This document shows, one piece after another, positions 3,439 to 63,500 of a stretch of 64,000 bases of DNA. The DNA lies in NCBI GenBank assembly GCA_000002445.1, contig CP000066.1, positions 1,376,001 through 1,440,000 on the forward strand. Direction: 5' to 3'. The position numbers and the translations under genes are program-made. Position 1 is the stretch's first letter. Each line of letters opens with the position of its first letter. This stretch comes from Trypanosoma brucei (taxonomy: Eukaryota). The notes under the pieces were generated by a model that had not been told where the DNA came from, did no database searches, and saw nothing but the letters and a program-made list of their open reading frames with translations.

Positions 3439-4575
3439 ATGTTTCCGGACCTGATTCCCTCAACATTTGAGAGTGAAAATCAGGGACGCAACAAGGCCTT
3501 TACGACTCTTATGGGAACGGTGCGTGCCCGACGCCGGTTGGCGGAATACCTGTCGTCCACTGCTTTTGTAAGCTTTACGAAAGAACAACAAGAAGTGGTG
3601 CGTTTCTCGGCAATGGGGGAGGCGGTGACCGCGAACCAGATACGTTTAATTGCACCTCATTTTGGTCGGGAAGGGCCGTTTAATGTCTACCAGATCCCCA
3701 ATGGTATTGCAGTAGCTCTGGCAAGGACTGTGGGAGTATACAAAGCATACCATGGTCTTGTTCCTAACAAAATTATGGCTCCTTACATGCGTCGTAAGAT
3801 CTTGCGGCAGTATCATAAAACCCGCGAGGATGACCGTATGCTACGTTTGGAGGGGCTTGACGATTTAACGGATGAGGAGCTGATAAAGGCGAACCTTGTT
3901 CGGGGTATGCGCTGGACAGAGGATGCGGAGACACTACGTATCCAACTTGAATGGTGGATATCTCTAGGACGTGACCCGGATGTCCCTTACAACACCCTTT
4001 TCTGGGTCAAGCCTACCCGATACAGCTTGAAAGAGTCAATGAAACGCTTGCCTGTGGAACAGCGCCGGCAGCTATTGGGCATTCAACATCTTCCCGAGAG
4101 CATTCGTGGAAATCTCGAGACACTCTGCGAAACGGTCGACACAGCTCCATCCATGAGTGAGGGTAAACCTGAGGACGCTGATCAGCTAGTGGAGAAACTT
4201 GCAGAGTTAAATGCTAAAACGAAAATCAGTGATAAGGATATTGCAATTCAGAATATTCAAATATCGCTGGGCGCTTATCTAACGGAACCAAATGTGAAAC
4301 GTATGTTTGAAGACATTCGCAAAAGTAAAACAGTGAACGAATATATAACAGTTACGGATGTCATAGATTTCATTGGAAGTGAAACCCATAATTCTTCCCA
4401 TGTAGTTTCTACTGTGTTTGATGCGTTCGATCAGAGTAGCGGAGTGAAGGCAATTACCGAATCTACACTCATATCTATCGGGGCCCGCTGCAGGGAGGCG
4501 TCAAAGGCACATGTCGACGTATCGTCTCAGTCTTCCCCAGGCAAACAGCCTTCAGAGGTGATTGCAAAAAATTAG
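3439..4575 (+). CDS. LETM1: LETM1-family mitochondrial inner-membrane protein; intact ORF portion covering the LETM1 domain onward
   Basis: MFPDLIPSTFE matches the LETM1 signature LFPNMLPSTFE. GMRWTEDAETLRIQLEWWISL aligns with human [22 protein letters not shown]. The upstream in-frame sequence continues the LETM1 TM/LRLVPF motif. Confidence 0.8.
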   Translation: MFPDLIPSTFESENQGRNKAFTTLMGTVRARRRLAEYLSSTAFVSFTKEQQEVVRFSAMGEAVTANQIRLIAPHFGREGPFNVYQIPNGIAVALARTVGVYKAYHGLVPNKIMAPYMRRKILRQYHKTREDDRMLRLEGLDDLTDEELIKANLVRGMRWTEDAETLRIQLEWWISLGRDPDVPYNTLFWVKPTRYSLKESMKRLPVEQRRQLLGIQHLPESIRGNLETLCETVDTAPSMSEGKPEDADQLVEKLAELNAKTKISDKDIAIQNIQISLGAYLTEPNVKRMFEDIRKSKTVNEYITVTDVIDFIGSETHNSSHVVSTVFDAFDQSSGVKAITESTLISIGARCREASKAHVDVSSQSSPGKQPSEVIAKN

Positions 4576-7311: not shown

Positions 7312-9561
7312 ATGACCTCACTCGTCCTAAATCACTATTCGCAGGAGGAAGTCAGCCGACTTTTCAATCTTTCGTCTCCACGAGACCTATTTCACCAGCG
7401 CACGCCGGCGCTGGCCGACGGAGACGTGAAACAGAAGGTGGAGGAGATACGCTCTTACGTGCATAGCACTATGGAACTGTATGAGAGGGTTTTTGAATGC
7501 CTCTCGTCGGAGGAAGCGTTTTTCGTTCAACCGATCCACAAGCTTCGCCACCCCTTAATTTTTTACTACGGCCACACTGCCTGCTTCTACATAAATAAGT
7601 TGTGCGCCGCTGGACTCTCCATGCGAATTCGCCCACACCTTGAGGAGGCGTTTGCAGTTGGTGTGGATGAGATGAGCTGGGATGATCTTAACGAAGAGCA
7701 CTATAACTGGCCAACAGTGGAGGAAGTTGTAGAGTACCGCCGTGCTGTCCGTAAGCACGTGGATGGCATGATGACAAGTGGCAAATTTGAACTGACCCTT
7801 CCCTTGACATTTGCTGGAAGCACAGAGAACGCTGACAGTTCATTTTGGTGGTTAATGTTGATGTGTGCTGAGCACGAGCGCATCCACGTCGAAACCGCCT
7901 CCGTTCACGTGCGAGAACTTCCCATGCGTTATGTGAGGCCGTCTATGGATCAGTTCTGGAAGCCGTGTGGGGAGGCAGGTTGCGAAGCCCCGGCAAACGA
8001 GCTGGTGGATGTAGCCGGGGGACGGGTAGCCGTCGGACGTGCGCCTAACTCTGAGCTATACGGTTGGGATTGCGACTACTCTGACGGAAATTATGTGCTT
8101 AATGTTGCACCGTTCAAGGCGAGTAAGTACTTAGTGTCTAACGCGGAGTTCTTTACCTTTGTTGTTGCAGGTGGTTACGCTACGCAACGCTACTGGGATG
8201 AGGAAGGGTGGAACTGGGTCCAGTGGAGGAAACCTGAGTGTCCCTGGTTCTGGGTTCGCGATGAGAACCGACCCAAGGGTTATGCGCTTCGACTTCAAAC
8301 GACGCTTATTGACTTGCCGTGGAGCTGGCCATGTGAGATTAACAATCTTGAGGCTCGGGCGTTTTGTAACTTTAAAAGTGAGCAAACTGGGAAGAAAATT
8401 CGTATGCCTACAGAAGCTGAATGGCTGATTCTTTGGGACCGGTACGTCGGCAAAGATCAAATGTTGTGGGATGTAGCGCCGGGGAATGTTAACATGGAAC
8501 ACTTCCAAAGTAGTTGCCCTGTCGATAAGTTTGCTCACGGTCCATTTTTCGATATAGTTGGAAACGTGTGGCAGCACTGTGAAACACCAGTATACCCGTA
8601 TCCTGGTTACCAGGTGCATCCATTCTACGATGATTTTTCTATGCCTACCTTTGATGGTCGCCATGCGTGTATGAAAGGCGGGGCATGGGTTAGTACGGGG
8701 AACGAGGCTACACGCGATGCTCGCTTCGCCTTTCGCCGCCATTTCTTCCAATACATCGGACTTCGATACGTGGAAGGTGAACCGGTGCAAGAGGGGTTTC
8801 TCAACTTGAATTCGTTGGGGCTTGATCCCATGGTGGATGCCATTACGGATGCCAACTACCGTCCTTCGTTTAATGACATCCCTAATGGTTTCGTACAGAT
8901 AGCAGAATTTGTTATGAACCAGTTCAGGTGTTGTGCTAGGACAGGGCCGAAGCGTGCCCTTGATTTTGCGTGTGGGGCTGGACGGATAGCATTTGAGCTG
9001 ACGTCAATGTTTGATCAAGTGGTTGGGTCGGATTTTTCTGCCCGATTGCTCATTCCCGCCTACGCTATCAGTGAGCGCGGAAGCTACACATATAGTATTG
9101 TGAACTCTTCTACGTCGAGACGTGTAGAACAAACCTTCAAGTCGCTGGGGTACCCGTGGGATGCAACCCGAGGGCGCGCTGTTTTTTTTCAAGCAGATCC
9201 TACGAACCTACACTCCCACATGAAAGATTTCTCGTTGATCTTGTGCTGGAACACGCTGGATAGGAGCTACAACCCCACCGCTGTTCCGTCGCATATGGTT
9301 GACAGGCTTGTGGTGGGTGGTTTGATTGTCTTCGGGCTTGATGGAGTGACTGATGAAGTCAACGAAGGAAAGAGGGAGCAGGGGGGTGAGGAAACACCCA
9401 AGCAGGTCGTCTTCTCAGAAAACGAGATCTATCATCTGTTGGGCGGAGAAAACGTGGTGGACCGCGTCGGAGACCCAACACAACTGACGGTTGCGTTTCC
9501 TGCGTCAGACTCTACAGCAACTTTCAGAAAAGTTCGGCTGTCCGTCTACCGAAAGAAATAA
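7312..9561 (+). CDS. OvoA: 5-histidylcysteine sulfoxide synthase OvoA (ovothiol biosynthesis): a DinB-like plus FGE-sulfatase domain fused to a C-terminal SAM methyltransferase
   Basis: Iron-binding H-x3-H-x-E motif (EHERIHVE). EgtB/OvoA-type FGE-sulfatase-like region (FKASKYLVSNAEFFTFVVAGGYATQRYWDEEGWNW, GPFFDIVGNVWQHCETP). C-terminal methyltransferase motif I (LDFACGAGRIAFEL). This three-part architecture is the one described for OvoA of Erwinia and Trypanosoma. Confidence 0.85.
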   Translation: MTSLVLNHYSQEEVSRLFNLSSPRDLFHQRTPALADGDVKQKVEEIRSYVHSTMELYERVFECLSSEEAFFVQPIHKLRHPLIFYYGHTACFYINKLCAAGLSMRIRPHLEEAFAVGVDEMSWDDLNEEHYNWPTVEEVVEYRRAVRKHVDGMMTSGKFELTLPLTFAGSTENADSSFWWLMLMCAEHERIHVETASVHVRELPMRYVRPSMDQFWKPCGEAGCEAPANELVDVAGGRVAVGRAPNSELYGWDCDYSDGNYVLNVAPFKASKYLVSNAEFFTFVVAGGYATQRYWDEEGWNWVQWRKPECPWFWVRDENRPKGYALRLQTTLIDLPWSWPCEINNLEARAFCNFKSEQTGKKIRMPTEAEWLILWDRYVGKDQMLWDVAPGNVNMEHFQSSCPVDKFAHGPFFDIVGNVWQHCETPVYPYPGYQVHPFYDDFSMPTFDGRHACMKGGAWVSTGNEATRDARFAFRRHFFQYIGLRYVEGEPVQEGFLNLNSLGLDPMVDAITDANYRPSFNDIPNGFVQIAEFVMNQFRCCARTGPKRALDFACGAGRIAFELTSMFDQVVGSDFSARLLIPAYAISERGSYTYSIVNSSTSRRVEQTFKSLGYPWDATRGRAVFFQADPTNLHSHMKDFSLILCWNTLDRSYNPTAVPSHMVDRLVVGGLIVFGLDGVTDEVNEGKREQGGEETPKQVVFSENEIYHLLGGENVVDRVGDPTQLTVAFPASDSTATFRKVRLSVYRKK

Positions 9562-11002
9562 GTGATGGACAAAGCTCTACCTCCTCTCCAGTTTGTATGA
9601 AGTCACAGTCGCGCCTCGAGTCTTCTTCCAATGAGGCTTTAACATGATGGTAGGGCGTTTAGTTTTTCGGTTATTTTCCATAATTTTCTTTCTTATTTGG
9701 TTTTTCGGCTTAACAAAAGGCCGGTTTCCGGCCCTCCCCACCGCGGGCGCTTTGCTACGGGCCACCGTCTATGCACTGGCCCGCCTCATAGCATTTGAAT
9801 ACGTACATATACTTGTATTCGAATAGTTTGTGCAGCTCTAATGAAAAAAGTATGTTTTCAGGGTTTATGAGATATACCATTTGTGTTTAATTTTTTGTAC
9901 CCTCGTATTCACATTGTTTACTCATTTATCAAAAGAGGAAGTGGTAGCGTGGAGGCAGGTAAACGCCGCCGGCTACGAGCGAACGGGTGTCGGGAAACGA
10001 CGATGTGTTAGCGATTTCGTTTGGGATACCATAATTGAGGAGAGAGATCGTTGGCATTCGGTGATGGAAGAGGGATGCATTCTGCTAGTTTTGTCAGTGA
10101 AGTAAAATGGACTGTGCCCACTTTTTTTTTCTTCGTATTGCTAAGCGGCGAGAAATGTGCATGATATCCCCGCCTCAGTGCCCTGACTACCCCTCCCACT
10201 CATGGCGGTTGTTGAGTTGTTTTGATGGTCCCTATGGGTCGTTTCTTTGTGTTCTCAGGTGCTTCCGCTTGAGCGTGTGTCCGTTATTCAGAACATATTG
10301 AGGGCCAACTTATGTAAGGCACTTGTGTAACTATGGGATTGGAGGTGTGGCTTTGTTGTGGTAGGGTCGAAGTTCAGCGTATTGTGGCAGATCAACCCCA
10401 TTTCCTGTTTGCTCGCGTCAGGAGGACACTGTTTCTTTTTTTTTTTTAAAGGCACAAGGGAATACGCCTGGGTTAGTGCGCTGCATTTGACCTTATATCC
10501 GGTTCCTATTGATGAGGCTGGCTTCGTTTTGGCGGCGGTATATTCAACCAAGCGCGATCCTTGAATCGACTATGCCCTCCACTACGCTATGTCGGCTTAC
10601 TGACTTTAGGATCCACCTCGTTGACCTCTGTCCTTTTACTTGGGGTGTTTAAACTGGGTTCGGGCTCTGTGGGTGCTCGTCAGCGACCGTCGTTTACATC
10701 GGACATCTTTAATTATTTTTATTCCATAATCCGTTTGTGTTTTTGTACCCCTCACTCCAATATACGAGGGTGTAAGGGCCTGAGAGTTATGTGCATGTGG
10801 GAGGAACTCTTCGTATTAATGCAGTTTCTTGTTTTTTGTTTGCATACGCCAGCCGAGTACCACGCACCTTCTCGTTTCCCATATGTGTGTGTATCTCCTT
10901 CCGTAGGTCTGCGCGCTGTTTGTCTTCTTTTACGGTCATTTGTCATTATTTCGTTAATTTCTTTTGCCCCTTGTAGATACGCGGTGCGGCCAGTAAGTTG
11001 GG

Positions 11003-23309: not shown

Positions 23310-24134
23310 ATGACAGTAATGGACGTGGATGCCACCGCCATCCCGGATATGATCGAGGCGCAGCTGACTCTTAGCTACAGCCGCCTCACACAACTAATTC
23401 GTCTGATTGTTGACCAGGGCAACGGCCATGATATGGACATTGGGAAGATTATGAATCGTCTAGATGCGCTTGCAAAGGAAAACGCAGAGCTTCGGAAGCG
23501 TGTGGACGAGCTCACAGAGACGACGATGCGCTGTGGAGGCGTCAACGAGGAGGTAGCAGTGTTGAAACGGGAAGTCGCCATTGTGCAGGAGCTCTGTACC
23601 GAGAATACGAAGAGGCTCACCAGCAGTGAAGGCATAAATGAGAGACGATTCGTTAAGTTGGAGGAAGCGGTAAGTACAGTATCGGACACAGGGACAACTG
23701 AAACCCAACGCTTGGACGGATGTATCACCGAGCTTCGATCGGAGAACTTGGAGATGAAGAAGGATGTTGGGTGCTTGAACGACTTCGTAGCCCTTTGGGA
23801 CGGTCATGTAGAGAAGATTCGAGCGCTGACCACACGTGACTCAGAGGGTAATTTGCAGCACGCAGCACATGAGAGGGCGAGATACCTTCACTCCCTTCCC
23901 CCATTCACTAAACTGTTTGAGGAGTTGGAGGTGATGCGGCAGCTGAATCGACATCAGACTACGGACTCACTCGCCGCAAAGGGTGTCGTAGGTGTGTTGA
24001 GGCGCTCAAGCGTCGGCGATATTGCGGGGAATACGGATCCCGCACCCAAATCACCATGCGTGGCGACCCCCGCTGCCGAAACAGAGTCGTGGAGAGAATC
24101 AATGCCACCATCGCTCAGTTGGACAAACGGCTAA
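23310..24134 (+). CDS. Coiled-coil hypothetical protein, 5' part; frame ends shortly after a C5 run
   Basis: Heptad-like sequence (LDALAKENAELRKRVDELTET, VAVLKREVAIVQELCTENTKRL). The frame terminates 60 nt after the C5 run at 24067-24071. Confidence 0.6.
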   Translation: MTVMDVDATAIPDMIEAQLTLSYSRLTQLIRLIVDQGNGHDMDIGKIMNRLDALAKENAELRKRVDELTETTMRCGGVNEEVAVLKREVAIVQELCTENTKRLTSSEGINERRFVKLEEAVSTVSDTGTTETQRLDGCITELRSENLEMKKDVGCLNDFVALWDGHVEKIRALTTRDSEGNLQHAAHERARYLHSLPPFTKLFEELEVMRQLNRHQTTDSLAAKGVVGVLRRSSVGDIAGNTDPAPKSPCVATPAAETESWRESMPPSLSWTNG

Positions 24135-24961
24135 AGGCCCTGGAGACTGAGCGAGCGGAACGAGGTAATGAGGCGCATGGCGCGGCTGCATACAGTTCAC
24201 AGTTCTTCATGGAAAAGGACTCACGCAACGCTGTGCCTCCATTGGTGGAGGGTTTCATTCCCTCGAGGGCTGTTCTAACCGACATCGAAGATCGACTGTG
24301 TTACCTTGAAGCTGCACTCAAAACCGGTAATACCTTGCCATCCTCCCGACGTGTACCACGGTTGCCTGAGAGGGATCTTCCACCAATCGTGGGAGCACCA
24401 CACCCCCCCGGTGCAGCACCATTGCAGGGTGAAGCTGGGGGAGAACCTTCAACTTCCACAAGCAAAGAACGTCAGGCATCCGAGCGGGCTGCAAGCAACG
24501 GCACATCGAATGGGATACCTCCACCTATTCAAGGACATCGAGGGTGCGACGTCAGCAATCCCTCTGCAGGAAACTCATCAAGTGCTGGCGTAAGTCAAGG
24601 ACGGCACGCGGTGGATGACGGCAGTGTGTTGCGACAACGCGTCGACAAACTTGAAGAGAGGGCGTCTGTGCTGGAGAAAAAGAAAGCTGATCGGCGGGAG
24701 GTGCAGCAACTGGAGGAATTTGTAGAGGAATTAGCCAGGCGTTCGTTGGGGCCACTCCAAACTGGTCCAGTGCCTTCCAACATGCAAGAAAATGCGCAAT
24801 TGGGTTACTCAGATGACGTTCTCGGGATGGGGAGAGGCTCGCGAAAAGTGGGCACTGCTCCACTCATGCGCTCCGTATTTGTTGTTGGCATGGGTACACA
24901 GTTGAACGATTCGACGGGCAGCAAAACTTCCGCCACAGTCGCCAACCCCAGGCAACTTTAG
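24056..24961 (+). CDS. Coiled-coil hypothetical protein, 3' part; probably the continuation of the 23310 gene after a single-base frame change
   Basis: This frame is open from 23999. It starts immediately with coiled-coil sequence RVVERINATIAQLDKRLKALETERAER and carries further coiled coil (LRQRVDKLEERASVLEKKKADRREVQQLEEFVEEL). It overlaps the upstream ORF by 79 nt in frame +2. Confidence 0.6.
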   Translation: MRGDPRCRNRVVERINATIAQLDKRLKALETERAERGNEAHGAAAYSSQFFMEKDSRNAVPPLVEGFIPSRAVLTDIEDRLCYLEAALKTGNTLPSSRRVPRLPERDLPPIVGAPHPPGAAPLQGEAGGEPSTSTSKERQASERAASNGTSNGIPPPIQGHRGCDVSNPSAGNSSSAGVSQGRHAVDDGSVLRQRVDKLEERASVLEKKKADRREVQQLEEFVEELARRSLGPLQTGPVPSNMQENAQLGYSDDVLGMGRGSRKVGTAPLMRSVFVVGMGTQLNDSTGSKTSATVANPRQL

Positions 24962-36943: not shown

Positions 36944-39199
36944 GTGCGCCGGGTTGGACCCATGGCGCACTATGATGAGTGGCTCATGTCAGTTGACGGG
37001 CTCGATTTCCACGACGAGGATGACAGCTATTTTAATGAAACTTATGCAACGGAGGATGAGCCTTCTCTCCGGACGGGTAGTGTCTCTTCTCTAGACCAGT
37101 TCGATGTGGTGCTGTGCCTCGTCGACTTTCAACAACGCATGTTCCAAGGTGTTGTTGCGCATGATTGCAAGAACCCATTTGCCGGTGGAGCAGAACAGGT
37201 ATACGACGATATCGCCGAGGTGAAAGTGAAAGAAACCCCCACAGTGTTCGAAAAGGCAATCTGCTGCGTTCAGCAACTGTACAAGGACAAGGGGATATCT
37301 GACAGCAACGATATGGTTGCGTTGGTGCTGTACAATACAAGGGAATGCACACATCCTGATTACCCTGGTGTATACGTCTTTCATACTTTTTGCTCAGCGG
37401 AAATACAATCTGTACTGGATTTGGAGGAACTTGTAGCTGCGGGGAGGGTACCGTCAGCGGGATATGAAAATATTGTGACGAAGATTGGCCATTCAACTGA
37501 AGCCAAGTCTCATCTCGGGGATGCGCTGCGGGCAGCCCGGCATTTGTTTTCCCAGCTGCCTTCCGAGGTCAAACATCGTCGAATTTTTCTCTTCACAAAC
37601 GACGTGAACCCACATCGCGGTGACGAGGAGCTTTTGCAGAAATGTGCTATCCAAATCGAGAGCTTGTCCTCTGGGGGAGTGGGCTTGGTGTGCTATGATA
37701 TGAGCCCCACTGCCCTTCCGTCACCGGCGGCTTCAACGCAATCGGGAGAAGCGGCTGCAATGAGTGAGCGTTGGGCAACACAGTTCGGCGGTGTGGACGA
37801 GTTTTGGAGTGCTCTTACGGGTGCGGTACCGAAGGCAACAAACAGTTCACGGGTTGGCACTATTGATATTGTTCACCTGAATAGCGACGATAGCGTTATG
37901 CTCGGAGCGCTCTCAACGGCAGTCCGCTGGCGCACACACCCACGGGGAGCCTCTCAAACGACAACACTAACTATTGGTGTAGGCGCAAAGGGCTCGGCAC
38001 TACCAAGACTGACAGTGGGTATGTATTTCCCGATGACAAATGCGCAGCGCCGATTATCGAAGTGGTTGGATGGACGCGCAGGTGAAATGGTAATGCTTCG
38101 GCAGCGTGCGGTGGGAGTGGGGGCCCCTATTTTGCTGCCTTGCCACGCGGGGAAGAGTGGTGCGCCACCTGCACATATCAGTACGGGGCAGTTGGGCAAG
38201 TCACGTCCAAGCACGGGACCGGGGACGTGCCCAAACGTTCCTCTAAGTTGTAAAAAGCATATCGCCGAGGTCGTTGGGGCGGGATTAACTCTCGGCTTTT
38301 CCATCATATGCTTCAAAAACGCTGATGACGTTCTGCACCCTCAGTACGTCCTGGGGAAGTCGTGCGTCCTCCACCCAGATCCGCAAGACGGTAGCGATGG
38401 CTCGCTTCGACTTTTCATTCGGTTGGCTCGAGCGCTGAAGGAGCAGCGGAAGGTTGCGATGGCGCAGCACATTACGCGCTACGCCACTCCTCCTCGTCTT
38501 GTCGCACTTGTGCCGCCCGGGCTCAACGGTGATCATATGGACACGGCTAGTTTCCCTGTGATGCACGGTCTTGGTTTGTACGTCGTGCCTCTCTCGTATG
38601 CTGACGACGTTCGTACCACCCCTCGATCCCCTCTCTTCGGCGATGCAACGAAACCTATGGAACGTGATATTGCTCTTGCACAGCGACTGCTGGCCACGCT
38701 GCCGTCTAAGTACAATGTGAACGTAGTTCCCAACCCTGCTTTGGAGCTACGCTATAAAGCTATTGAGAGTATTGTGCAACAGACACAGCAGCAGAGTGGG
38801 TTGTCAAAGGAAATTCCAGGGGTAGCTCCGTTCTCGCAACTGTCAAAGGCAGTTGATCGGACGTGGGGTGATCGTGGGGCTATGGCAAAATACGGCTCTG
38901 TGTTTGATGAGTTTAAGGCGGTATTGCTCCCTTCGTACAACCGAGACGAAACGTGTGGTCCTAAGACGAAAGCGGCGCGGAATGTGAAGGCGCGAGCAGA
39001 GTTGGCTGACGAGGACATCAAAGGTGTTGAAAGAATAATATCTGCCGTCGAGTCGGCGTTTCGGTTCCAGTCTATGGGGATGCTGACTGAACCGCAGTTG
39101 AAGGAGTATTTGCGCGTGATGGAGGGCGGTGCCTTTGGAGTCCGGAGAAATCCGGATATCATTCAAGCTGTGATATCTCAATTGCAAGGCGACATTTAG
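36944..39199 (+). CDS. KU70: Ku70 (ATP-dependent DNA helicase 2 subunit 1) homologue: vWA-like N-domain, Ku core, C-terminal SAP domain
   Basis: DVVLCLVDFQQRMF aligns with human Ku70 DSLIFLVDASKAMF. HRRIFLFTNDVNPHRGDE aligns with HKRIMLFTNEDNPHGND. LVALVPPG...MHGLGLYVVPLSYADDVR aligns with FVALVPQE...PPGFQLVFLPFADDKR. The C-terminal LTEPQLKEYLRVMEG is SAP-like, and the SAP domain separates Ku70 from Ku80. Confidence 0.85.
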   Translation: MRRVGPMAHYDEWLMSVDGLDFHDEDDSYFNETYATEDEPSLRTGSVSSLDQFDVVLCLVDFQQRMFQGVVAHDCKNPFAGGAEQVYDDIAEVKVKETPTVFEKAICCVQQLYKDKGISDSNDMVALVLYNTRECTHPDYPGVYVFHTFCSAEIQSVLDLEELVAAGRVPSAGYENIVTKIGHSTEAKSHLGDALRAARHLFSQLPSEVKHRRIFLFTNDVNPHRGDEELLQKCAIQIESLSSGGVGLVCYDMSPTALPSPAASTQSGEAAAMSERWATQFGGVDEFWSALTGAVPKATNSSRVGTIDIVHLNSDDSVMLGALSTAVRWRTHPRGASQTTTLTIGVGAKGSALPRLTVGMYFPMTNAQRRLSKWLDGRAGEMVMLRQRAVGVGAPILLPCHAGKSGAPPAHISTGQLGKSRPSTGPGTCPNVPLSCKKHIAEVVGAGLTLGFSIICFKNADDVLHPQYVLGKSCVLHPDPQDGSDGSLRLFIRLARALKEQRKVAMAQHITRYATPPRLVALVPPGLNGDHMDTASFPVMHGLGLYVVPLSYADDVRTTPRSPLFGDATKPMERDIALAQRLLATLPSKYNVNVVPNPALELRYKAIESIVQQTQQQSGLSKEIPGVAPFSQLSKAVDRTWGDRGAMAKYGSVFDEFKAVLLPSYNRDETCGPKTKAARNVKARAELADEDIKGVERIISAVESAFRFQSMGMLTEPQLKEYLRVMEGGAFGVRRNPDIIQAVISQLQGDI

Positions 39200-49965: not shown

Positions 49966-52900
49966 GCATCTCTGACGCTCATTTCTCCCTTTTGAATTGT
50001 GGAGCGAGGGAGATGGTTGCGGCGATGTGCAAACGGTGAATGCACAAGAGAGAAAAAAGCGAAAAAATAATAATAATTCTAAAGTGTCTGTAGACATGAC
50101 TAAGGAGAGAAAACCTCTCCCTCTACATTTCACCTTATTGTATTCCATTTTATTTCTTTACTTAACAAAAAAAGAAAATAACTGTAAGTGACTTAACTAT
50201 ATTCCCTTCCCTTTAAACCTGTTTTCATCCCCTTTCATTCCCTTTCCTTATTTTTCTCGTTATTTTTAAAAAAAAAGCTGTGTGTGCTGCTGGGTGTGTT
50301 TTTATACATTAATTTATTTTCATGTTGCAATATTTCCTCCCTCTCATCTCTTTTCTGCATTCCACGGATTCACGTGCGTTGGGGTAATGAAAGAAGAAAA
50401 TCTCAATTTCTGATGGTGGAGTCAAATCCTCCACTTTTTTATGTTTTATGGTATGTTTTATGGTATGTTTTATTGTTTTTTTTAATTGTTTTATTATTTA
50501 TTATTTTTTTTCCCCCATTTCAAAATTCGTTCGACCCACATTTGTGTTGATGCTTCGTTTCATTGAACCCTTTTCTCCCTACTCTCACTCTCACTCTCAC
50601 ACGCACACGCACACGCACATGCACGATTATACGAAAATATGTGAAAGTTATATATTTATTTATGAATGTGCTTATTTTTTGGTTAATGCAACTTCTCAAC
50701 CCCCCTTTTCCCCGTTATTATTTCACATGTACCGTTTTTTAAGCGATGCGACGCACTTACACTCTCTGCATGATGAAACGGAGTTTCGCGACACCCCATT
50801 TTAAAATTTTTATTGTTTATCTTTTTTCTTTTTTTTGCTCCTATAAATGTAGTTTTTACACAATATCACATAATATAATTTAATATGACTTCACATTATT
50901 TAATACAATCTCATTATTTTTCTTTTTTTTTTTGTGTGTGTGTGTATGTGCGGTTAAACGACCCTCTATGAGGCAGTTGCTTGTTGTCAATATCGTTATT
51001 TGTATTTTAAAACGAAAACAATAAGGGAACTGCAAAGGAACAGACAAAAAGGAAAAAAATAAAATAAACAACAAGAGGACACTCACAGAATAAACCGAAT
51101 AAAATCCAGCATTCAATAATAAAACAATGACAACATCAACAGAAAACAGAACACAGAAGGAAACACGAACAGAAAATAGGAGGAAAACAGAACCCGTTGA
51201 CAAAAAATAAAAACAGAAGAAAAAAAACACAGAGAGAAAAAGAATTAGTCAATATACCTCAGTATAAAATGAAATATTAACGGAAAGAATATGTTATGAT
51301 TTTGCCCGTTTGTTCTTTCTTCGATGCCGTTGCAATAATGGTAAAAATGATAATAATAATAATTAAAAAAAACGTTTTCCCCTCCGATATTTTTATTTTA
51401 TATCCTTCCTCTTTTTTTTTTTTGCTTTGCATTTTGGTTTGCACATAACTTTGTGCAGTTCACGTTCACACGATGGCGCTGCTGCTCACAGGCACTCAAC
51501 GCATCCACTTCAAGAAGTGAGAAGATAAAAAAAGAAAATAAAAATGAAGCTATCAAATCTGCTCCACCCATACAATCCACGACTATTCTTACATACTTAC
51601 ATTTTTTTCTTTTAAATAAATAAATAAATATATATATATATATTCTTTTCTTGTTGTTGTTTTTGTTCACATAAATATCAAATAACAAATAATAAATACA
51701 TTCGTTTTACTATTTATCCAATCACTTCCGATTTTCACAAATGACTTTGTTTCGCTTCGATACCCTTCAAAACACCGCTGCGTGGGACGGATTCAAAAGA
51801 ATAACTTGCAGACGACTAGCGGCAATGGGAGGAGGAAAAAAAAAAGACAAAAAGAACTGACGCACACGAGTTAGAAGTTGATAACTGTTGTGAGAAGGAA
51901 GAAGAAGAAGCAAAGGGGCGGAAAAAAAAAAGGAGACAAACAGAGCAACAACAACAACAACAGCTAATTTTCTCATTATTATTATTATTGCTATTATCAC
52001 TATTGTTATTTTTGTTTTGCCGGTCACTAGAAGAATATACACCCGTATTGAAATAAATAAAATAAGTAAATTTTAATTTGTTTTGTAACTATTATTTCCC
52101 ATATTTTAAGCGACCAAATATTTACATCAAGGCAGAACACTTTGGATGATATGATCTCCAAAAGAAGGAAGATAATGCAATTGTATATGTATATGCATAT
52201 GTATGAGTGTGTGGGTTTTATAAAAGAAAGCACGTGACACAATTAATGGCAGAAAAGAGGGAGAAAATGCATAAAACGAAAGTCGCTCCAATGAACAATA
52301 ATGAAATATAGGACACAAAATATTAAAGATGGGGGATCAAATCGAAGGGCAGAGGGGCGGGGAGGGAGGGCGGAGGAAAGAAAAAAAAAAGATAATAGCC
52401 TGATAAAAAGAAAATACGAATATATATATATATATATAACTATTTATATTTTATATGTTTTTTTTTCTTTTTATAACGTTATCGCGTGATGACATGAATT
52501 ATTGGGAGGGTGTGGGTTTTTATCGTTTCCTTATTTTCTTTTAATTTCAGAAAAAAGAAGTTGTTTTTGTTTTTTTATTTTTTAATTTTACTTTTTAAAT
52601 TATCAGGTATGTTCTCATTACCTCTCCTGCGATGTGACTACACGCCTTTATGTTTCACTGAATCCAAATTCTTTCGTGTCTTTACTTCCATTTTTTTTTC
52701 TCTTATCCCCCCATATATTTACTTTAATTTTTATTATTTATCGGAACATGACTTAAGCGATTACCTGACTTGGATATCAGTCAACTAAGCACGCACACAC
52801 ACACACACACACATAATCAAGTGAATTAGAAAGAAGAACAAAAAAAATCAAAGAAAGCAAATTTAAGGATACGATAAGGGCAGATCAAAGTGAAGAAGAA

Positions 52901-53043
52901 AAAAAACAACAATAACAACAACAATAATAATAATAACAGCAAAAAAATAAAAATAAAAAGGAAAGAGTATAAATTATTCACTCAAATTGCCCACTGTTTT
53001 TTTTTAATTTTGCTTACTTGTTACTACTTGAACGCAATCACAT
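49966..53043. other. 3 kb AT-rich low-complexity spacer with alternating strand composition
   Basis: About 50200-50900 is T/pyrimidine-rich on the + strand, 51000-52400 is A/purine-rich (long runs such as aaaacagaacacagaaggaaacacgaacagaaaatagg), and 52400-53000 is T-rich again. It contains (CA)n at 52791-52814, (TA)n at 51633-51646 and 52424-52440, and (cactct)n/(cacg)n at 50581-50625. No ORF longer than 120 aa. Confidence 0.7.
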
Positions 53044-53640
53044 ATGCCCTCCGCTGAAACACTACTGAAGGATTTGTTCGGTTCTCATACCGTTGAGTTG
53101 CTTCGGCAGGATGGCAAAATGGTACCCGCAACAACTGCTCTTGAAGGTAAGAAATATTTGCTTGTATATTTCTCCGCCTCATGGTGCCCTCCGTGTCGTG
53201 TTTTCACACCACAACTCGCCACATTTCATGAGCTTTTCAGCGCAAAACACAATTTTGATGTGATATTTGTTTCACGAGACAAGGATGAGTCCTCCATGTC
53301 TGCTTATTTCTACAATCCAAAGTACAGCAGTTTATCCGTAAGTGGTGGCGAATGTTCTCATGGGGACTGGCTTGCATTGCCCTTCACACAAGCGCAGACT
53401 GTAGGAAAGGAAATAATGAGCCGATATGGTTTAAACACGATTCCTAATATTCTTTTGTTTGACCTCAGCACGGAGGAGTTGGTGACAAGTGAGGCACGTC
53501 AATTGATTGGATCCAACTGCCGGTCGGCTGAAGGTTTCCCGTGGCGTGGCGCCTCGGCTCCGGTAATTTCGTTTCAAGGATTGGCAACTGTATTTGTTGT
53601 GTTTTTGATGTTGTATCAATTTTGGCAGTCGTGGAGTTGA
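53044..53640 (+). CDS. Tryparedoxin-like thiol-disulfide oxidoreductase with a C-terminal hydrophobic membrane anchor
   Basis: Tryparedoxin signature YFSASWCPPCRVFTPQL (WCPPCR active site) in a thioredoxin-fold-sized protein. C-terminal hydrophobic GLATVFVVFLMLYQFW immediately before the stop, i.e. tail-anchor-like. Confidence 0.8.
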   Translation: MPSAETLLKDLFGSHTVELLRQDGKMVPATTALEGKKYLLVYFSASWCPPCRVFTPQLATFHELFSAKHNFDVIFVSRDKDESSMSAYFYNPKYSSLSVSGGECSHGDWLALPFTQAQTVGKEIMSRYGLNTIPNILLFDLSTEELVTSEARQLIGSNCRSAEGFPWRGASAPVISFQGLATVFVVFLMLYQFWQSWS

Positions 53641-61804: not shown

Positions 61805-62303
61805 GGGTCAATCACTCACGTGAGTCTGAGTGCACTGAGCTGCAGAGACATTTCCCCAGAAGTGACCCTGAAACCTGTTGGACACAATTACTGCCGGTGT
61901 CTGAGTGCGGTGTGGGCATACTTGGGTTCTGTATCTGATCCTTGTTGTTTTCTCCCTTCTTATCTTTGTCTTTTTGTTTCCCTAGTTTGCTCTGCATTCG
62001 AGATGAGTACTGTATATTCTTTAATTGATTCCCTCCAAGCCCTCCTCTTTTCTTGACTATATTGCGTTGTTGAATGTAGATGTGCATGGTTGTATTTGGT
62101 TATGATACCCCGTTGCTTGCGGGCGCGTTGCACGAGATTGCATGGAGGGCGCGTGTGAGGCTTCTTTTCCTCCAGAGTTCCTTCATTTTCCTCCTGTTTC
62201 AATCCTCATCTGCATTTGTTTTCTTTTCTCTCTTTTTTTTCTTCGCAAACTACAAATACATTTGGTTATGTTCCTCTCTATGTTTTTTTTTAAATCTGTC
62301 ATC

Positions 62304-62337
62304 AATAATAATAATAATAATTATTATTATTATTATT
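62304..62337. repeat. (AAT)n immediately followed by (ATT)n; a self-complementary trinucleotide microsatellite
   Basis: aataataataataataattattattattattatt. It can form a perfect hairpin, and it translates as N5Y5 in the spurious 5' ORF extension. Confidence 0.9.
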
Positions 62338-62363
62338 GCGTTACGTATAGCGCTTACAGAAAC

Positions 62364-63500
62364 ATGTCGCCCCACAACAAGCGCTCCATGGAACAAAAGA
62401 AGAGGAATAAAGACCGTATCGCCGCCTACCACGGGCAAAGGGTCAACTCGCATGGAGGTCACCGAAATTCGCATTCGCATTCGGGCCACCGGCACCGCGG
62501 CGGGCATACTGTTAGGAGAAACCGCATTTACGACCCGGGAAATCCGTTTGATAGGCAACTCTTCGACTATTTGATTGTCGTGGACGTGGAAGCGACATGC
62601 GAGTATAAAAATGACAATTATCCCCACGAAATTATTGAATTACCCGGTGTATTAGTTGACGTGAGGCGTGGCGTTGTAGACAAGGAACGTTCGTTTCGTT
62701 CATATGTGCGACCGCAACGTAATCCTCTTCTCACCCCTTTCTGTAAAGCACTCACAGGAATAACGCAGGAGGATGTTGACAGCGCACCAACCCTCCAGGA
62801 AGTTGTGAAGTTATTTGAGCAGTGGTACACCGAAACGATTCCACGCGGTGCAAAAGTTGCCTTGGCTACGGACGGGCCTTGGGATTTGAAAAACTTTGTG
62901 CACGAGCACTCCATCTTGCGTGATCATATTAGTTTCCCCACCATCTTTTACGAATATCTGGACATCCGCACGACCTTTGCACACTTCTTCAATCGTGGTA
63001 CGCCTTTAAAACTAGTTCCCATGCTTGAACGGTTGCAGCTAACATTTGAGGGACGTGAGCACTGCGGTTTTGACGATGCGGTGAATATTGCCCGCCTCGC
63101 GGTGTCTATGATGCGTGCGGGATGTGTGTTCAACTACCTCGTGGCAATCCCATTAACTGATGAATTTCACTACGACATGCCAAATACTGCGTTGTACCGC
63201 CGAAAGGAGGGGAGCGGTTATCTTGACCCTGATGTTGTTGATGACATTGCGAAGAAATGCTTTGGAGTAGATTACTTTACATTCGGTGAGAGACATATGG
63301 CAGAGGTGATGGAACACCGGCGCCGCTACCCTCAAAACTTCAACCAACGCAACCAACTGTGGAAACAAACGAAAATGAAGAATCGCGGCCGCAGGTTGTA
63401 CGGCGTTCGCTTCAGAATGGTAGCCGTTGCCGTCTTGGCTCTGCTTGGATTAGTTTTGTTTTTGTTGCTCATTTACCGGAAAGTGATGACGCTGCTCTAA
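62364..63500 (+). CDS. DEDDh 3'-5' exonuclease (ERI-1/3'hExo/RNase T-like) with a His/Arg-rich N-terminus and a C-terminal transmembrane helix
   Basis: Exo I motif LIVVDVEATCE. Exo II region KVALATDGPWDLKNFV. Exo III motif with the H-x4-D signature (HCGFDDAVNIARL), which marks the DEDDh subfamily. N-terminal HGGHRNSHSHSGHRHRGGH tract. C-terminal MVAVAVLALLGLVLFLLLIY followed by RKVMTLL and the stop. Start taken at MSPHNKRS; the track start at 62142 lies in pyrimidine/low-complexity sequence. Confidence 0.8.
   Translation: MSPHNKRSMEQKKRNKDRIAAYHGQRVNSHGGHRNSHSHSGHRHRGGHTVRRNRIYDPGNPFDRQLFDYLIVVDVEATCEYKNDNYPHEIIELPGVLVDVRRGVVDKERSFRSYVRPQRNPLLTPFCKALTGITQEDVDSAPTLQEVVKLFEQWYTETIPRGAKVALATDGPWDLKNFVHEHSILRDHISFPTIFYEYLDIRTTFAHFFNRGTPLKLVPMLERLQLTFEGREHCGFDDAVNIARLAVSMMRAGCVFNYLVAIPLTDEFHYDMPNTALYRRKEGSGYLDPDVVDDIAKKCFGVDYFTFGERHMAEVMEHRRRYPQNFNQRNQLWKQTKMKNRGRRLYGVRFRMVAVAVLALLGLVLFLLLIYRKVMTLL

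Follow-up and report, generated by a model that had tools for sequence, protein, structure and literature searches.

TREX1 is a mammalian ER tail-anchored DEDDh DNA exonuclease with a C-terminal transmembrane domain (TMD), and it is an active dimeric DNase. SNIP, which Zeiner et al. reportedly described in Mol Cell Biol in 2004, is said to be a nucleoplasmic 3'-5' exonuclease of Trypanosoma brucei that polishes the 3' ends of SL RNA and snRNA and has a central ExoIII/DnaQ-type domain. Human ERI1/3'hExo (1w0h, 1zbu, and 4l8r), ERI2, ERI3, and CRN-4 of Caenorhabditis elegans have the same DEDDh fold and motifs as a fourth kind of protein, TbLrRP1 (large subunit rRNA processing 1; 378 aa, 44 kDa) of T. 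brucei (Amodeo et al., Nucleic Acids Res 53(22):gkaf1327, 2025; PMC12702573). RNAi and double knockout showed that TbLrRP1 is needed to excise ITS5, ITS6, and ITS7, which are kinetoplastid-specific spacers, from LSU rRNA; upon its loss, LSU-beta, SR2, SR4, and SR6 were not released, and unprocessed precursors were found in translating ribosomes, while 5.8S rRNA was unaffected by its depletion (PMC12702573). The NERD protein TbLrRP2 (Tb927.10.9200), which is anchored at its N-terminus, was co-purified with TbLrRP1, and a heterodimer of the two is predicted; the evidence for this interaction is a single SILAC co-IP and, from AlphaFold3, an ipTM of 0.62 (PMC12702573). Orthologues of TbLrRP1 are present in all metakinetoplastids, a range that agrees with where fragmented LSU rRNA occurs (PMC12702573). 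TbLrRP1 makes up half of the machinery, long sought, by which kinetoplastid LSU rRNA is broken into pieces, and since this fragmentation is lineage-specific, it is a possible drug-target area.

Here we analyzed a 64,000-nucleotide stretch of chromosome 3 DNA from T. brucei TREU927 (the window), in which the ORF at 62364..63500 (+ strand), including its TAA stop codon (63498-63500, + strand), encodes a protein of 378 aa and 44.2 kDa with a pI of 9.5. This protein was 100% identical over 378 residues to XP_844103.1/Q580W2 of T. brucei TREU927, a protein of the 1.65-Mb chromosome 3. Ku70 at 36944-39199 corresponds to Tb927.3.5030, and counting ten consecutive ORFs downstream leads to Tb927.3.5130. 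Species, chromosome, length (378 aa), mass (44 kDa), DEDDh domain, C-terminal TMD, and gene order all agreed with TbLrRP1 of PMC12702573, and no difference was found. With this exact protein match, size, architecture, and gene order, the ORF is the complete CDS of Tb927.3.5130/TbLrRP1. The gene of its partner TbLrRP2 lies on chromosome 10, outside the window. No mention of the accession Q580W2 was found in the literature text, and a search of the whole window against Rfam at the gathering threshold gave no matches.

The combination of an ERI1-type nuclease fold with a membrane anchor is an unusual architecture. This oddity is real but already explained by the December 2025 paper (PMC12702573), and since the discovery of TbLrRP1 is already published, our finding adds no new biology. 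What goes beyond that paper is an over-long GenBank record and the perfect conservation of catalytic residues that were reported to be dispensable. We also add the tail anchor in 31/31 homologues, the lineage-specific His-richness of the N-terminal region, the MxxHNKR peptide, the 74-residue extension, and the D-E-D-H-D set in 57/57 homologues, each of which is described below.

The GenBank model XP_844103.1, still labelled 'hypothetical protein, conserved', starts at 62142 and has 452 aa. No orthologue aligned with its additional 5' part (62142..62363, + strand), which is unlikely to be translated and would instead be 5' UTR or splice-acceptor region, and the protein has 378 aa both in the model annotated in T. 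equiperdum and in PMC12702573. Upstream of the true start codon, within the 5' part, base composition revealed a polypyrimidine tract of 80-90% C+T (62165..62244, + strand), which is likely a trans-splicing signal, judging from established trypanosome mRNA processing. The orthologue alignment, the 378-aa model of T. equiperdum, and the position of the pyrimidine tract inside the extension all support a start at 62364, where an earlier note on this DNA had also put it, rather than at 62142. At 452 aa against 378 aa, the TREU927 model in GenBank is over-long.

The Pfam search, the alignment with ERI1, the AlphaFold2 (AF2) model, and Foldseek together defined an ERI1-like DEDDh domain (RNase_T, DnaQ-fold) at residues 71-256 (62574..63131, + strand). 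Residues 71-245 matched RNase_T (PF00929) over profile positions 1-163 of 164 with an E-value of 6.1e-22 and 79.3 bits, far above the curated cutoff of 24 bits. The best match in a sequence search of the PDB was human ERI1/3'hExo (1w0h; E=5.6e-40), and in this alignment D74, E76, D170, H233, and D238 of TbLrRP1 paired with D134, E136, D234, H293, and D298 of ERI1. The three exo motif strings that the earlier note had read from the ORF were present in the translation of 62364..63500 (+ strand), namely VVDVEATCE (residues 72-80), LATDGPWDLKNFV (residues 167-179), and HCGFDDAVNIARL (residues 233-245). They contain the Exo I motif D74-V-E76 (62583..62591, + strand), the Exo II aspartate D170 in TDGPWD (62871..62873, + strand), and the Exo III motif H233-x4-D238 in HCGFDD (63060..63077, + strand), all of which were invariant in 31 aligned homologues. 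These homologues are trypanosomatid and bodonid and include Trypanoplasma borreli and bodonid-like metagenome sequences. F126 and L130, which correspond to the base-stacking pair F185/L189 of ERI1, were also invariant in the 31 homologues, and the D-E-D-H-D set was intact in 57/57 full-length anchored homologues.

The AF2 model of TbLrRP1 had a mean pLDDT of 87.6, with block means of 86-98 across the nuclease domain, and predicted an RNase H-like alpha/beta fold. Foldseek searches of the PDB with this model gave 3'hExo/ERI1, ERI2, CRN-4, and ERI3 as the best matches (E-values of 2e-18 to 1e-14). ERI1 showed 32-39% identity with TbLrRP1 in the Foldseek alignments, and the target-normalised TM-scores to 1w0h and 7k05 were 0.86-0.90 with an rmsd of 1.9 A. 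Non-kinetoplastid matches with a functional name were mostly called '3'-5' exoribonuclease 1'. These results uphold the ERI1/RNase T-like DEDDh fold that had been proposed from the sequence: the RNase_T profile was matched, the ERI1 family was the closest by sequence and predicted structure, and all five active-site residues aligned with those of ERI1 and were retained in the homologues.

Outside the nuclease domain, TbLrRP1 differs from ERI1 in that it has no SAP domain, a basic disordered N-terminus, an extension of 74 residues, and a tail anchor. The SAP domain (PF02037) is carried by many metazoan and fungal homologues; in TbLrRP1, Pfam gave no match to it at E<=0.1, and RNase_T was the sole domain found, in line with the earlier note that a basic segment stands in place of SAP. 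Alignment, AF2, and composition identified a conserved basic peptide and helix, MSPHNKR...KxR, at residues 1-24 (62364..62435, + strand), which has 7 K+R and 2 acidic residues and in which the helix spans residues 3-24 at a pLDDT of 59-73. M1, H4, K6, and R7 of this MxxHNKR peptide were conserved in at least 90% of the homologues. It is followed by a His/Arg-rich low-complexity linker at residues 25-58 (62436..62537, + strand), which was delimited by composition, AF2, and alignment, has 7 His, 7 Arg+Lys, and 1 acidic residue, and contains the basic His-rich string HGGHRNSHSHSGHRHRGGH at residues 30-48. Residues 25-53 had a pLDDT below 50 and are predicted to be disordered. T. theileri and T. 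grayi had a Gln-rich stretch in place of this tract, and Leishmania had one of Ser, Gly, and basic residues; the N-terminal region was net basic in the full-length homologues. As judged from these sequences, the His-rich composition is lineage-specific, and the basic disordered character and the MxxHNKR peptide are kept. Of the N-terminus as first described, the basic character stood in the comparison of orthologues and the His-richness did not.

A conserved extension, YRRxEGSG...DIAKxCxGxxYFxFG, with two helices follows the nuclease domain in the alignment and the AF2 model (residues 257-330; 63132..63353, + strand). Y278, R279, R280, S284, G285, K297, G301, and G308 were invariant in the alignment of 31 homologues, and the extension was found in 50/58 anchored homologues. 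Block-mean pLDDT was 93-96 over residues 251-320 and fell to 80 at residues 321-330. The extension is without a counterpart in the matched ERI1 structures, and the PDB matches spanned only about 190-260 alignment columns. The His/Arg tract, the MxxHNKR peptide, and the post-nuclease extension are not discussed in PMC12702573.

The C-terminal part begins with a basic juxtamembrane segment (residues 331-351; 63354..63416, + strand) that contains 8 K+R and 0 acidic residues and belongs to one long helix predicted by AF2 at residues 329-377. The transmembrane tail anchor, MVAVAVLALLGLVLFLLLI, is at residues 352-370 (63417..63473, + strand), and the C-terminal hydrophobic string pointed out in the earlier note, VAVAVLALLGLVLFLLLIY, lies at residues 353-371. 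Residues 352-370 had a mean Kyte-Doolittle hydropathy of 3.23 and were the top 19-mer of the protein; the next best 19-mer, inside the nuclease fold, had 1.43. Very high TMD hydropathy is typical of ER tail anchors, whereas basic TMD flanks, which TbLrRP1 has on both sides, can favour targeting to the mitochondrial outer membrane in other systems. A short luminal tail of 8 residues, YRKVMTLL (residues 371-378; 63474..63497, + strand), was assigned from the translation, the hydropathy, and the protease protection of a C-terminal HA tag. TbLrRP1 has a single TMD at its extreme C-terminus, a short tail, no N-terminal signal peptide, and no other TMD, and its N-terminus is strongly basic and hydrophilic in composition, as in tail-anchored proteins. 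The C-terminal segment was the most hydrophobic 19-mer (Kyte-Doolittle 2.3-3.5) in 31/31 aligned homologues, at 0-44 residues from the C-terminus. Neither of the observations that the earlier note had named as refuting its reading, missing DEDDh residues or orthologues without the hydrophobic tail, was made.

The published assays showed that TbLrRP1 is a carbonate-resistant integral membrane protein with a cytosolic N-terminus and a protease-protected C-terminus, which bears out the membrane tethering that was predicted from the hydrophobic tail (PMC12702573). TbLrRP1 from which the TMD had been deleted was cytosolic and less functional, full activity requiring the TMD (PMC12702573). In confocal immunofluorescence, TbLrRP1 overlapped with BiP, which marks the ER, and was enriched at the nuclear envelope, and an ER location is given both by TrypTag and by a spatial proteomics study (PMC12702573).

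Both ERI1 and TbLrRP1 have a part in the maturation of LSU rRNA (PMC12702573). However, the trimming of 5.8S rRNA by ERI1 needs its catalytic residues, whereas TbLrRP1 in which all three exo motifs had been changed to alanine still complemented the knockout and fully restored the visible rRNA pattern, as read on EtBr-stained agarose gels (PMC12702573). This published mutant indicates that exonuclease activity is unneeded for the role of TbLrRP1 in ITS5-7 excision. The view of the protein as a membrane-tethered exonuclease therefore holds in part: the tethering is proven, and the known role does without catalysis. Because 5.8S rRNA was unaffected and the exo motifs were dispensable for the rRNA role, we file TbLrRP1 as ERI1-like in fold and not as a functional ERI1 orthologue.

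We hold, with a probability of roughly 0.88, that the ORF is TbLrRP1, a tail-anchored ERI1-like protein that sits in the ER and nuclear envelope, and infer that it acts mainly as a membrane-tethered adaptor in LSU rRNA processing. As its discoverers suggested, the adaptor would bind RNA or ribosomes. It may present nearly mature 60S particles to the TbLrRP2 endonuclease at or just after nuclear export, and its basic N-terminal region could bind nucleic acid as the SAP domain does in metazoan ERI1.

Conservation of both the catalytic and the stacking residues is unexpected for a pure scaffold, and the intact D-E-D-H-D set in the anchored homologues hints at a catalytic role yet to be found. TbLrRP1 might be an active 3'-5' exoribonuclease that polishes 3' ends after cleavage by TbLrRP2 or has some other ER or nuclear-envelope substrate; on the conservation pattern and the modelled fold, we hold this as a tentative alternative. 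The invariance of the five active-site residues and of the equivalents of the nucleotide-stacking pair F185/L189 of ERI1, together with the high-confidence ERI1-like fold in AF2 and Foldseek, would fit such an enzyme. Against it, complementation with the motif mutant brought the visible rRNA pattern back in full, nuclease activity of wild-type TbLrRP1 is not demonstrated according to PMC12702573, and active-site residues can be kept for RNA binding alone. Such a role might have been masked in the experiment with the dead mutant by limited resolution of the assay, as a few extra nucleotides do not show on EtBr-stained agarose gels, or by redundancy with two DEDDh paralogues, Tb927.3.5140 (762 aa) and Tb927.3.5150 (329 aa), which occur kinetoplastid-wide and whose domains are highly similar; the authors state that other exonucleases must take part (PMC12702573). 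For the tail-anchored ERI1-like clade as a whole, a catalytic role in nucleotide-level 3' polishing of the rRNA fragments that TbLrRP2 sets free, or in the turnover of other RNAs or of spacers after excision, may likewise be entertained, with some doubt.

By their numbering, Tb927.3.5140 and Tb927.3.5150 should lie just downstream of the window. Sequences among the weaker matches, such as P0139, P0184, and P0135, are probable orthologues of these two genes. Unlike TbLrRP1, the examined representatives had no C-terminal TMD. Tb927.3.5150 is listed in the literature as a putative telomere-associated or DNA-lesion-binding protein. SNIP is likewise a trypanosome protein with a DnaQ-type exonuclease domain, but it is reportedly nucleoplasmic, whereas TbLrRP1 is membrane-bound. 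Identity of TbLrRP1 with SNIP was set aside in view of this reported location, and SNIP is absent from PMC12702573. No gene ID for SNIP was found in the literature text.

A DNA-clearing function in the cytosol, as an ER-anchored exonuclease like TREX1, is very unlikely for TbLrRP1. In both proteins a C-terminal TMD fixes a DEDDh domain to the ER on its cytosolic side, and TREX1 was among the Foldseek matches (E-value of about 6e-6). However, TREX1 belongs to another DEDDh subfamily with about 15% identity, and TbLrRP1 is far closer in sequence and fold to the RNA-acting ERI1 (E-value of about 1e-40). We regard the shared architecture as convergent. TbLrRP1, whose partner is a NERD protein, is linked to the processing of rRNA; its knockout impairs this processing, and no DNA phenotype is reported (PMC12702573). 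The weakest alternative, an RNA or DNA exonuclease tethered to an organelle such as the mitochondrial outer membrane, which the earlier note had also considered and to which the basic TMD flanks, one automatic annotation of the Leptomonas orthologue as 'putative mitochondrial', and a mitochondrial RNA-editing TUTase among the four co-IP-enriched proteins would point, has almost no probability, since the BiP overlap, nuclear-envelope enrichment, TrypTag, and spatial proteomics contradict mitochondrial or organellar targeting, the knockout affects cytosolic LSU rRNA (PMC12702573), and the TMD is very highly hydrophobic.

Returning to the tail-anchored ERI1-like architecture itself, five anchored homologues (P0048, P0051, P0052, P0054, and P0123) were without the kinetoplastid extension. 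Since these extension-less forms come from lineages without an assigned taxon, the anchored architecture may predate the metakinetoplastids or extend beyond them, to judge from the sequences. In an NJ tree that was rough and carried no support values, the extension-less anchored homologues adjoined the TbLrRP1 clade. The L001 and P0123 contigs shared an upstream UCH gene and a compact gene order on one strand; a homology search with that UCH protein matched only itself. As a separate observation, the P0129 contig had archaeal-looking neighbours, and near 12 kb its GC stepped from about 0.49 to about 0.43; P0129 is either a product of chimeric assembly or a real archaeal gene.

The ORF at 62364..63500 (+) encodes 378 residues (computed mass, 44.2 kDa) and its product is 100% identical to a protein of T. 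brucei brucei TREU927. LETM1, Ku70, RPL4, an apparently tail-anchored tryparedoxin-like protein, and XPB are encoded in the same window, all on the + strand. Ku70 is Tb927.3.5030, and counting ORFs from it in steps of ten gives Tb927.3.5130 for 62364..63500. Based on this gene order and on the mass, which matches that described by Amodeo et al. (Nucleic Acids Res 2025; PMC12702573), the ORF is TbLrRP1, a known gene whose experimental characterization was published in December 2025.

The mechanical ORF and GenBank XP_844103.1 start at 62142 and give 452 aa. In the orthologue alignment, the 74 extra residues matched no orthologue, and the T. equiperdum model has 378 aa. Additionally, a pyrimidine tract (80–90%) lies at 62165–62244, within the 5′ extension of the 452-aa model. 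In trypanosomes, the trans-splicing signal stands upstream of the coding region, and this tract looks like such a signal ahead of TbLrRP1. These three observations indicate that 62364 is the correct start, as the earlier note had placed it; all strings quoted there were found in the translation. The length used in the 2025 paper is also 378 aa (PMC12702573). GenBank lists the gene in TREU927 and T. b. gambiense as a 452-aa "hypothetical protein, conserved"; these models include 222 nt of sequence upstream of the true start (62142–62363), and the annotation is outdated.

RNase_T (PF00929; residues 71–245, E = 6.1e-22) was the only significant Pfam match of TbLrRP1, in agreement with the proposed absence of a SAP domain. 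The best PDB sequence match was human ERI1/3′hExo (1w0h, E = 5.6e-40), followed by ERI2, ERI3, and CRN-4. In the 1w0h alignment, D74/E76, D170, and H233/D238 pair with ERI1 D134/E136, D234, and H293/D298, so that all four acidic residues and the histidine are retained. An AlphaFold2 model (mean pLDDT 87.6) was built from an alignment of 31 homologues from Trypanosoma, Leishmania, Phytomonas, Angomonas, Trypanoplasma borreli, and bodonid-like metagenome sequences. Foldseek matched it to 3′hExo/ERI1, ERI2, CRN-4, and ERI3 in the PDB at E values of 2e-18 to 1e-14, with an rmsd of 1.9 Å to isolated nuclease domains; Pol III epsilon, RNase T, and TREX1 ranked far lower. The ERI1-like DEDDh assignment thus holds by Pfam, PDB sequence search, and structure comparison.

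In the C-terminal helix (residues 352–370), Kyte-Doolittle hydropathy averages 3.23, whereas the next best 19-mer reaches 1.43. The stretch ahead of this helix contains eight Arg/Lys and no acidic residues, and only eight residues follow it. The tail is shared by all 31 aligned homologues, whose top hydrophobic 19-mer (2.3–3.5) lies 0–44 residues from the C-terminus. Membrane tethering, predicted in the earlier note, agrees with experiment: TbLrRP1 stays in membranes under carbonate, and an N-terminal tag is protease-accessible while a C-terminal tag is protected (PMC12702573). The protein overlaps BiP with enrichment at the nuclear envelope, and TrypTag and spatial proteomics place it in the ER (PMC12702573). 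The suggestion of a possibly organellar enzyme therefore stands only for the ER and nuclear envelope; a mitochondrial location is unsupported. In the bodonid-type homologues P0043–P0047 and P0126, which come from Trypanoplasma borreli and bodonid-like sequences, an acidic or coiled-coil insert separates the conserved extension from the tail anchor; it has about 200 residues in the 560–604-aa forms and is shorter in the ~380–408-aa forms (P0047 and P0126). One such homologue is encoded at 4089–5903 of contig L002. The nuclease and the membrane are therefore separated by a spacer of unconstrained length.

RNAi or double knockout of TbLrRP1 abolished LSU-β, reduced SR2, SR4, and SR6, and left ITS5, ITS6, and ITS7 retained, while LSU-α, SR1, 18S, 5S, and 5.8S were unchanged (PMC12702573). 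Unprocessed rRNA intermediates reached 60S, 80S, and polysomes, and growth was only slightly slower (PMC12702573). The partner is the N-terminally anchored NERD protein TbLrRP2 (SILAC co-IP; AlphaFold3 ipTM 0.62), whose NERD motif is required for processing; TMD deletion made TbLrRP1 cytosolic and only partly functional (PMC12702573). The authors proposed that TbLrRP1 would bind the substrate RNA and hand it to TbLrRP2, and placed this step on 60S particles whose assembly is almost complete, at export or immediately afterwards (PMC12702573).

Alanine substitution of conserved residues in all three exo motifs still allowed complementation of the knockout (PMC12702573). Since the only function known so far does not depend on the putative activity, the description of the protein as a 3′–5′ RNA or DNA exonuclease needs changing. 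On the other hand, we gathered 219 homologues, 58 of which have a C-terminal hydrophobic helix, and the five catalytic residues were intact in all 57 full-length anchored forms. F126 and L130, equivalent to ERI1 F185 and L189, are invariant in the 31-homologue alignment; in the 3′hExo-rAMP structure, the ERI1 pair stacks on the 3′ base. The complementation result came from EtBr-stained agarose gels (PMC12702573), and 3′ extensions of a few nt are below what such gels can show. In addition, two paralogues, Tb927.3.5140 and Tb927.3.5150, have highly similar DEDDh domains (PMC12702573); judged by numbering, they should lie directly downstream of the window. Residue conservation, gel resolution, and the paralogues together keep a redundant or fine-trimming catalytic role in consideration, at a probability well short of even but not slight. 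That a "dispensable" active site is conserved without exception is one residual point of value; the outdated GenBank annotation is a second.

The third lies in the unstudied N-terminal and post-nuclease segments. The His-rich N-terminal tract is present (seven His and seven Arg/Lys in residues 25–58; residues 25–53 predicted to be disordered in the AlphaFold2 model) but is not conserved as such: T. theileri and T. grayi have a Gln-rich equivalent, and that of Leishmania is Ser/Gly/basic. The His-rich form is thus specific to its lineage, within a linker that is basic in general, and what is conserved is a net-basic region and an extreme N-terminal peptide, M-x-x-H-N-K-R. Residues 257–330, absent from the earlier note, make up an extension past the nuclease domain (YRRxEGSG...DIAKxCxGxxYFxFG) that is strongly conserved, is modelled with confidence, and has no counterpart in the ERI1 structures matched by Foldseek.

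Eight anchored homologues, including P0048, P0051, P0052, P0054, and P0123, lack this extension. Such short forms (276–346 aa; e.g., at 7893–8822 of contig L001 and P0123 on a 9.1-kb contig) adjoin the TbLrRP1 clade in a rough NJ tree that included part of them. The P0052 and P0123 contigs are compact; one strand carries all called genes but one on the former and all five on the latter. On both, a UCH-domain gene and then a short gene precede the gene for the ERI1-like protein, and the UCH protein had no relatives in a homology search. The TMD is described as absent outside kinetoplastids (PMC12702573), and the short forms may come from unsampled kinetoplastids. P0129, which shares 51% identity with P0052, is also ERI1-like and has a hydrophobic helix at its C-terminus; it is encoded at 10001–10915 of L003 (ENA ERZ21831265 ctg79425l, 71.9 kb). 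Archaeal-type genes adjoin it (aCPSF1-like KH_TffA + Beta-Casp, SepF, proteasome, and FKBP26), eukaryote-like genes (WSD and split L24e) lie on its other side, and GC falls from ~0.49 to ~0.43 near 12 kb. L003 is either a chimeric assembly or from an archaeon with a eukaryote-like ERI1 gene. Mammalian TREX1 is an ER tail-anchored DEDDh DNase and shares this architecture with TbLrRP1. However, it belongs to another DEDDh subfamily and is a far weaker Foldseek match than ERI1; by subfamily, the likeness is convergence, not homology.

All Pfam-supported ORFs of at least 200 aa in the window are on the + strand: IPP transferase, signal peptide peptidase, LETM1, an FGE-sulfatase/DinB/methyltransferase protein, kinesin, a cNMP-binding protein, Ku70, RPL4, ankyrin proteins, PSP1, and XPB. 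The window (1–64000) is a single polycistronic unit, and Rfam at the gathering threshold gave no matches across it. A 198-aa tryparedoxin/thioredoxin-like ORF at 53044–53640 (+), with a WCPPC motif and a hydrophobic C-terminal segment (VISFQGLATVFVVFLMLYQFWQSWS), is apparently a second tail-anchored protein and, from gene order, would be Tb927.3.5090. Between it and the PSP1-domain gene, ~3 kb at 49966–53040 are AT-rich (GC 0.33–0.36 vs ~0.50 elsewhere) and contain only short low-complexity repeats and no ORF of at least 200 aa, which makes for an intergenic or UTR region of unusual length in a one-strand gene cluster. The ORFs at 23310–24134 (+; 274 aa, coiled-coil-like) and 24056–24961 (+; 301 aa, no Pfam match) overlap by ~80 nt in different frames; they may represent a single gene broken by a frameshift or a sequencing error, or else two ORFs that really do overlap.
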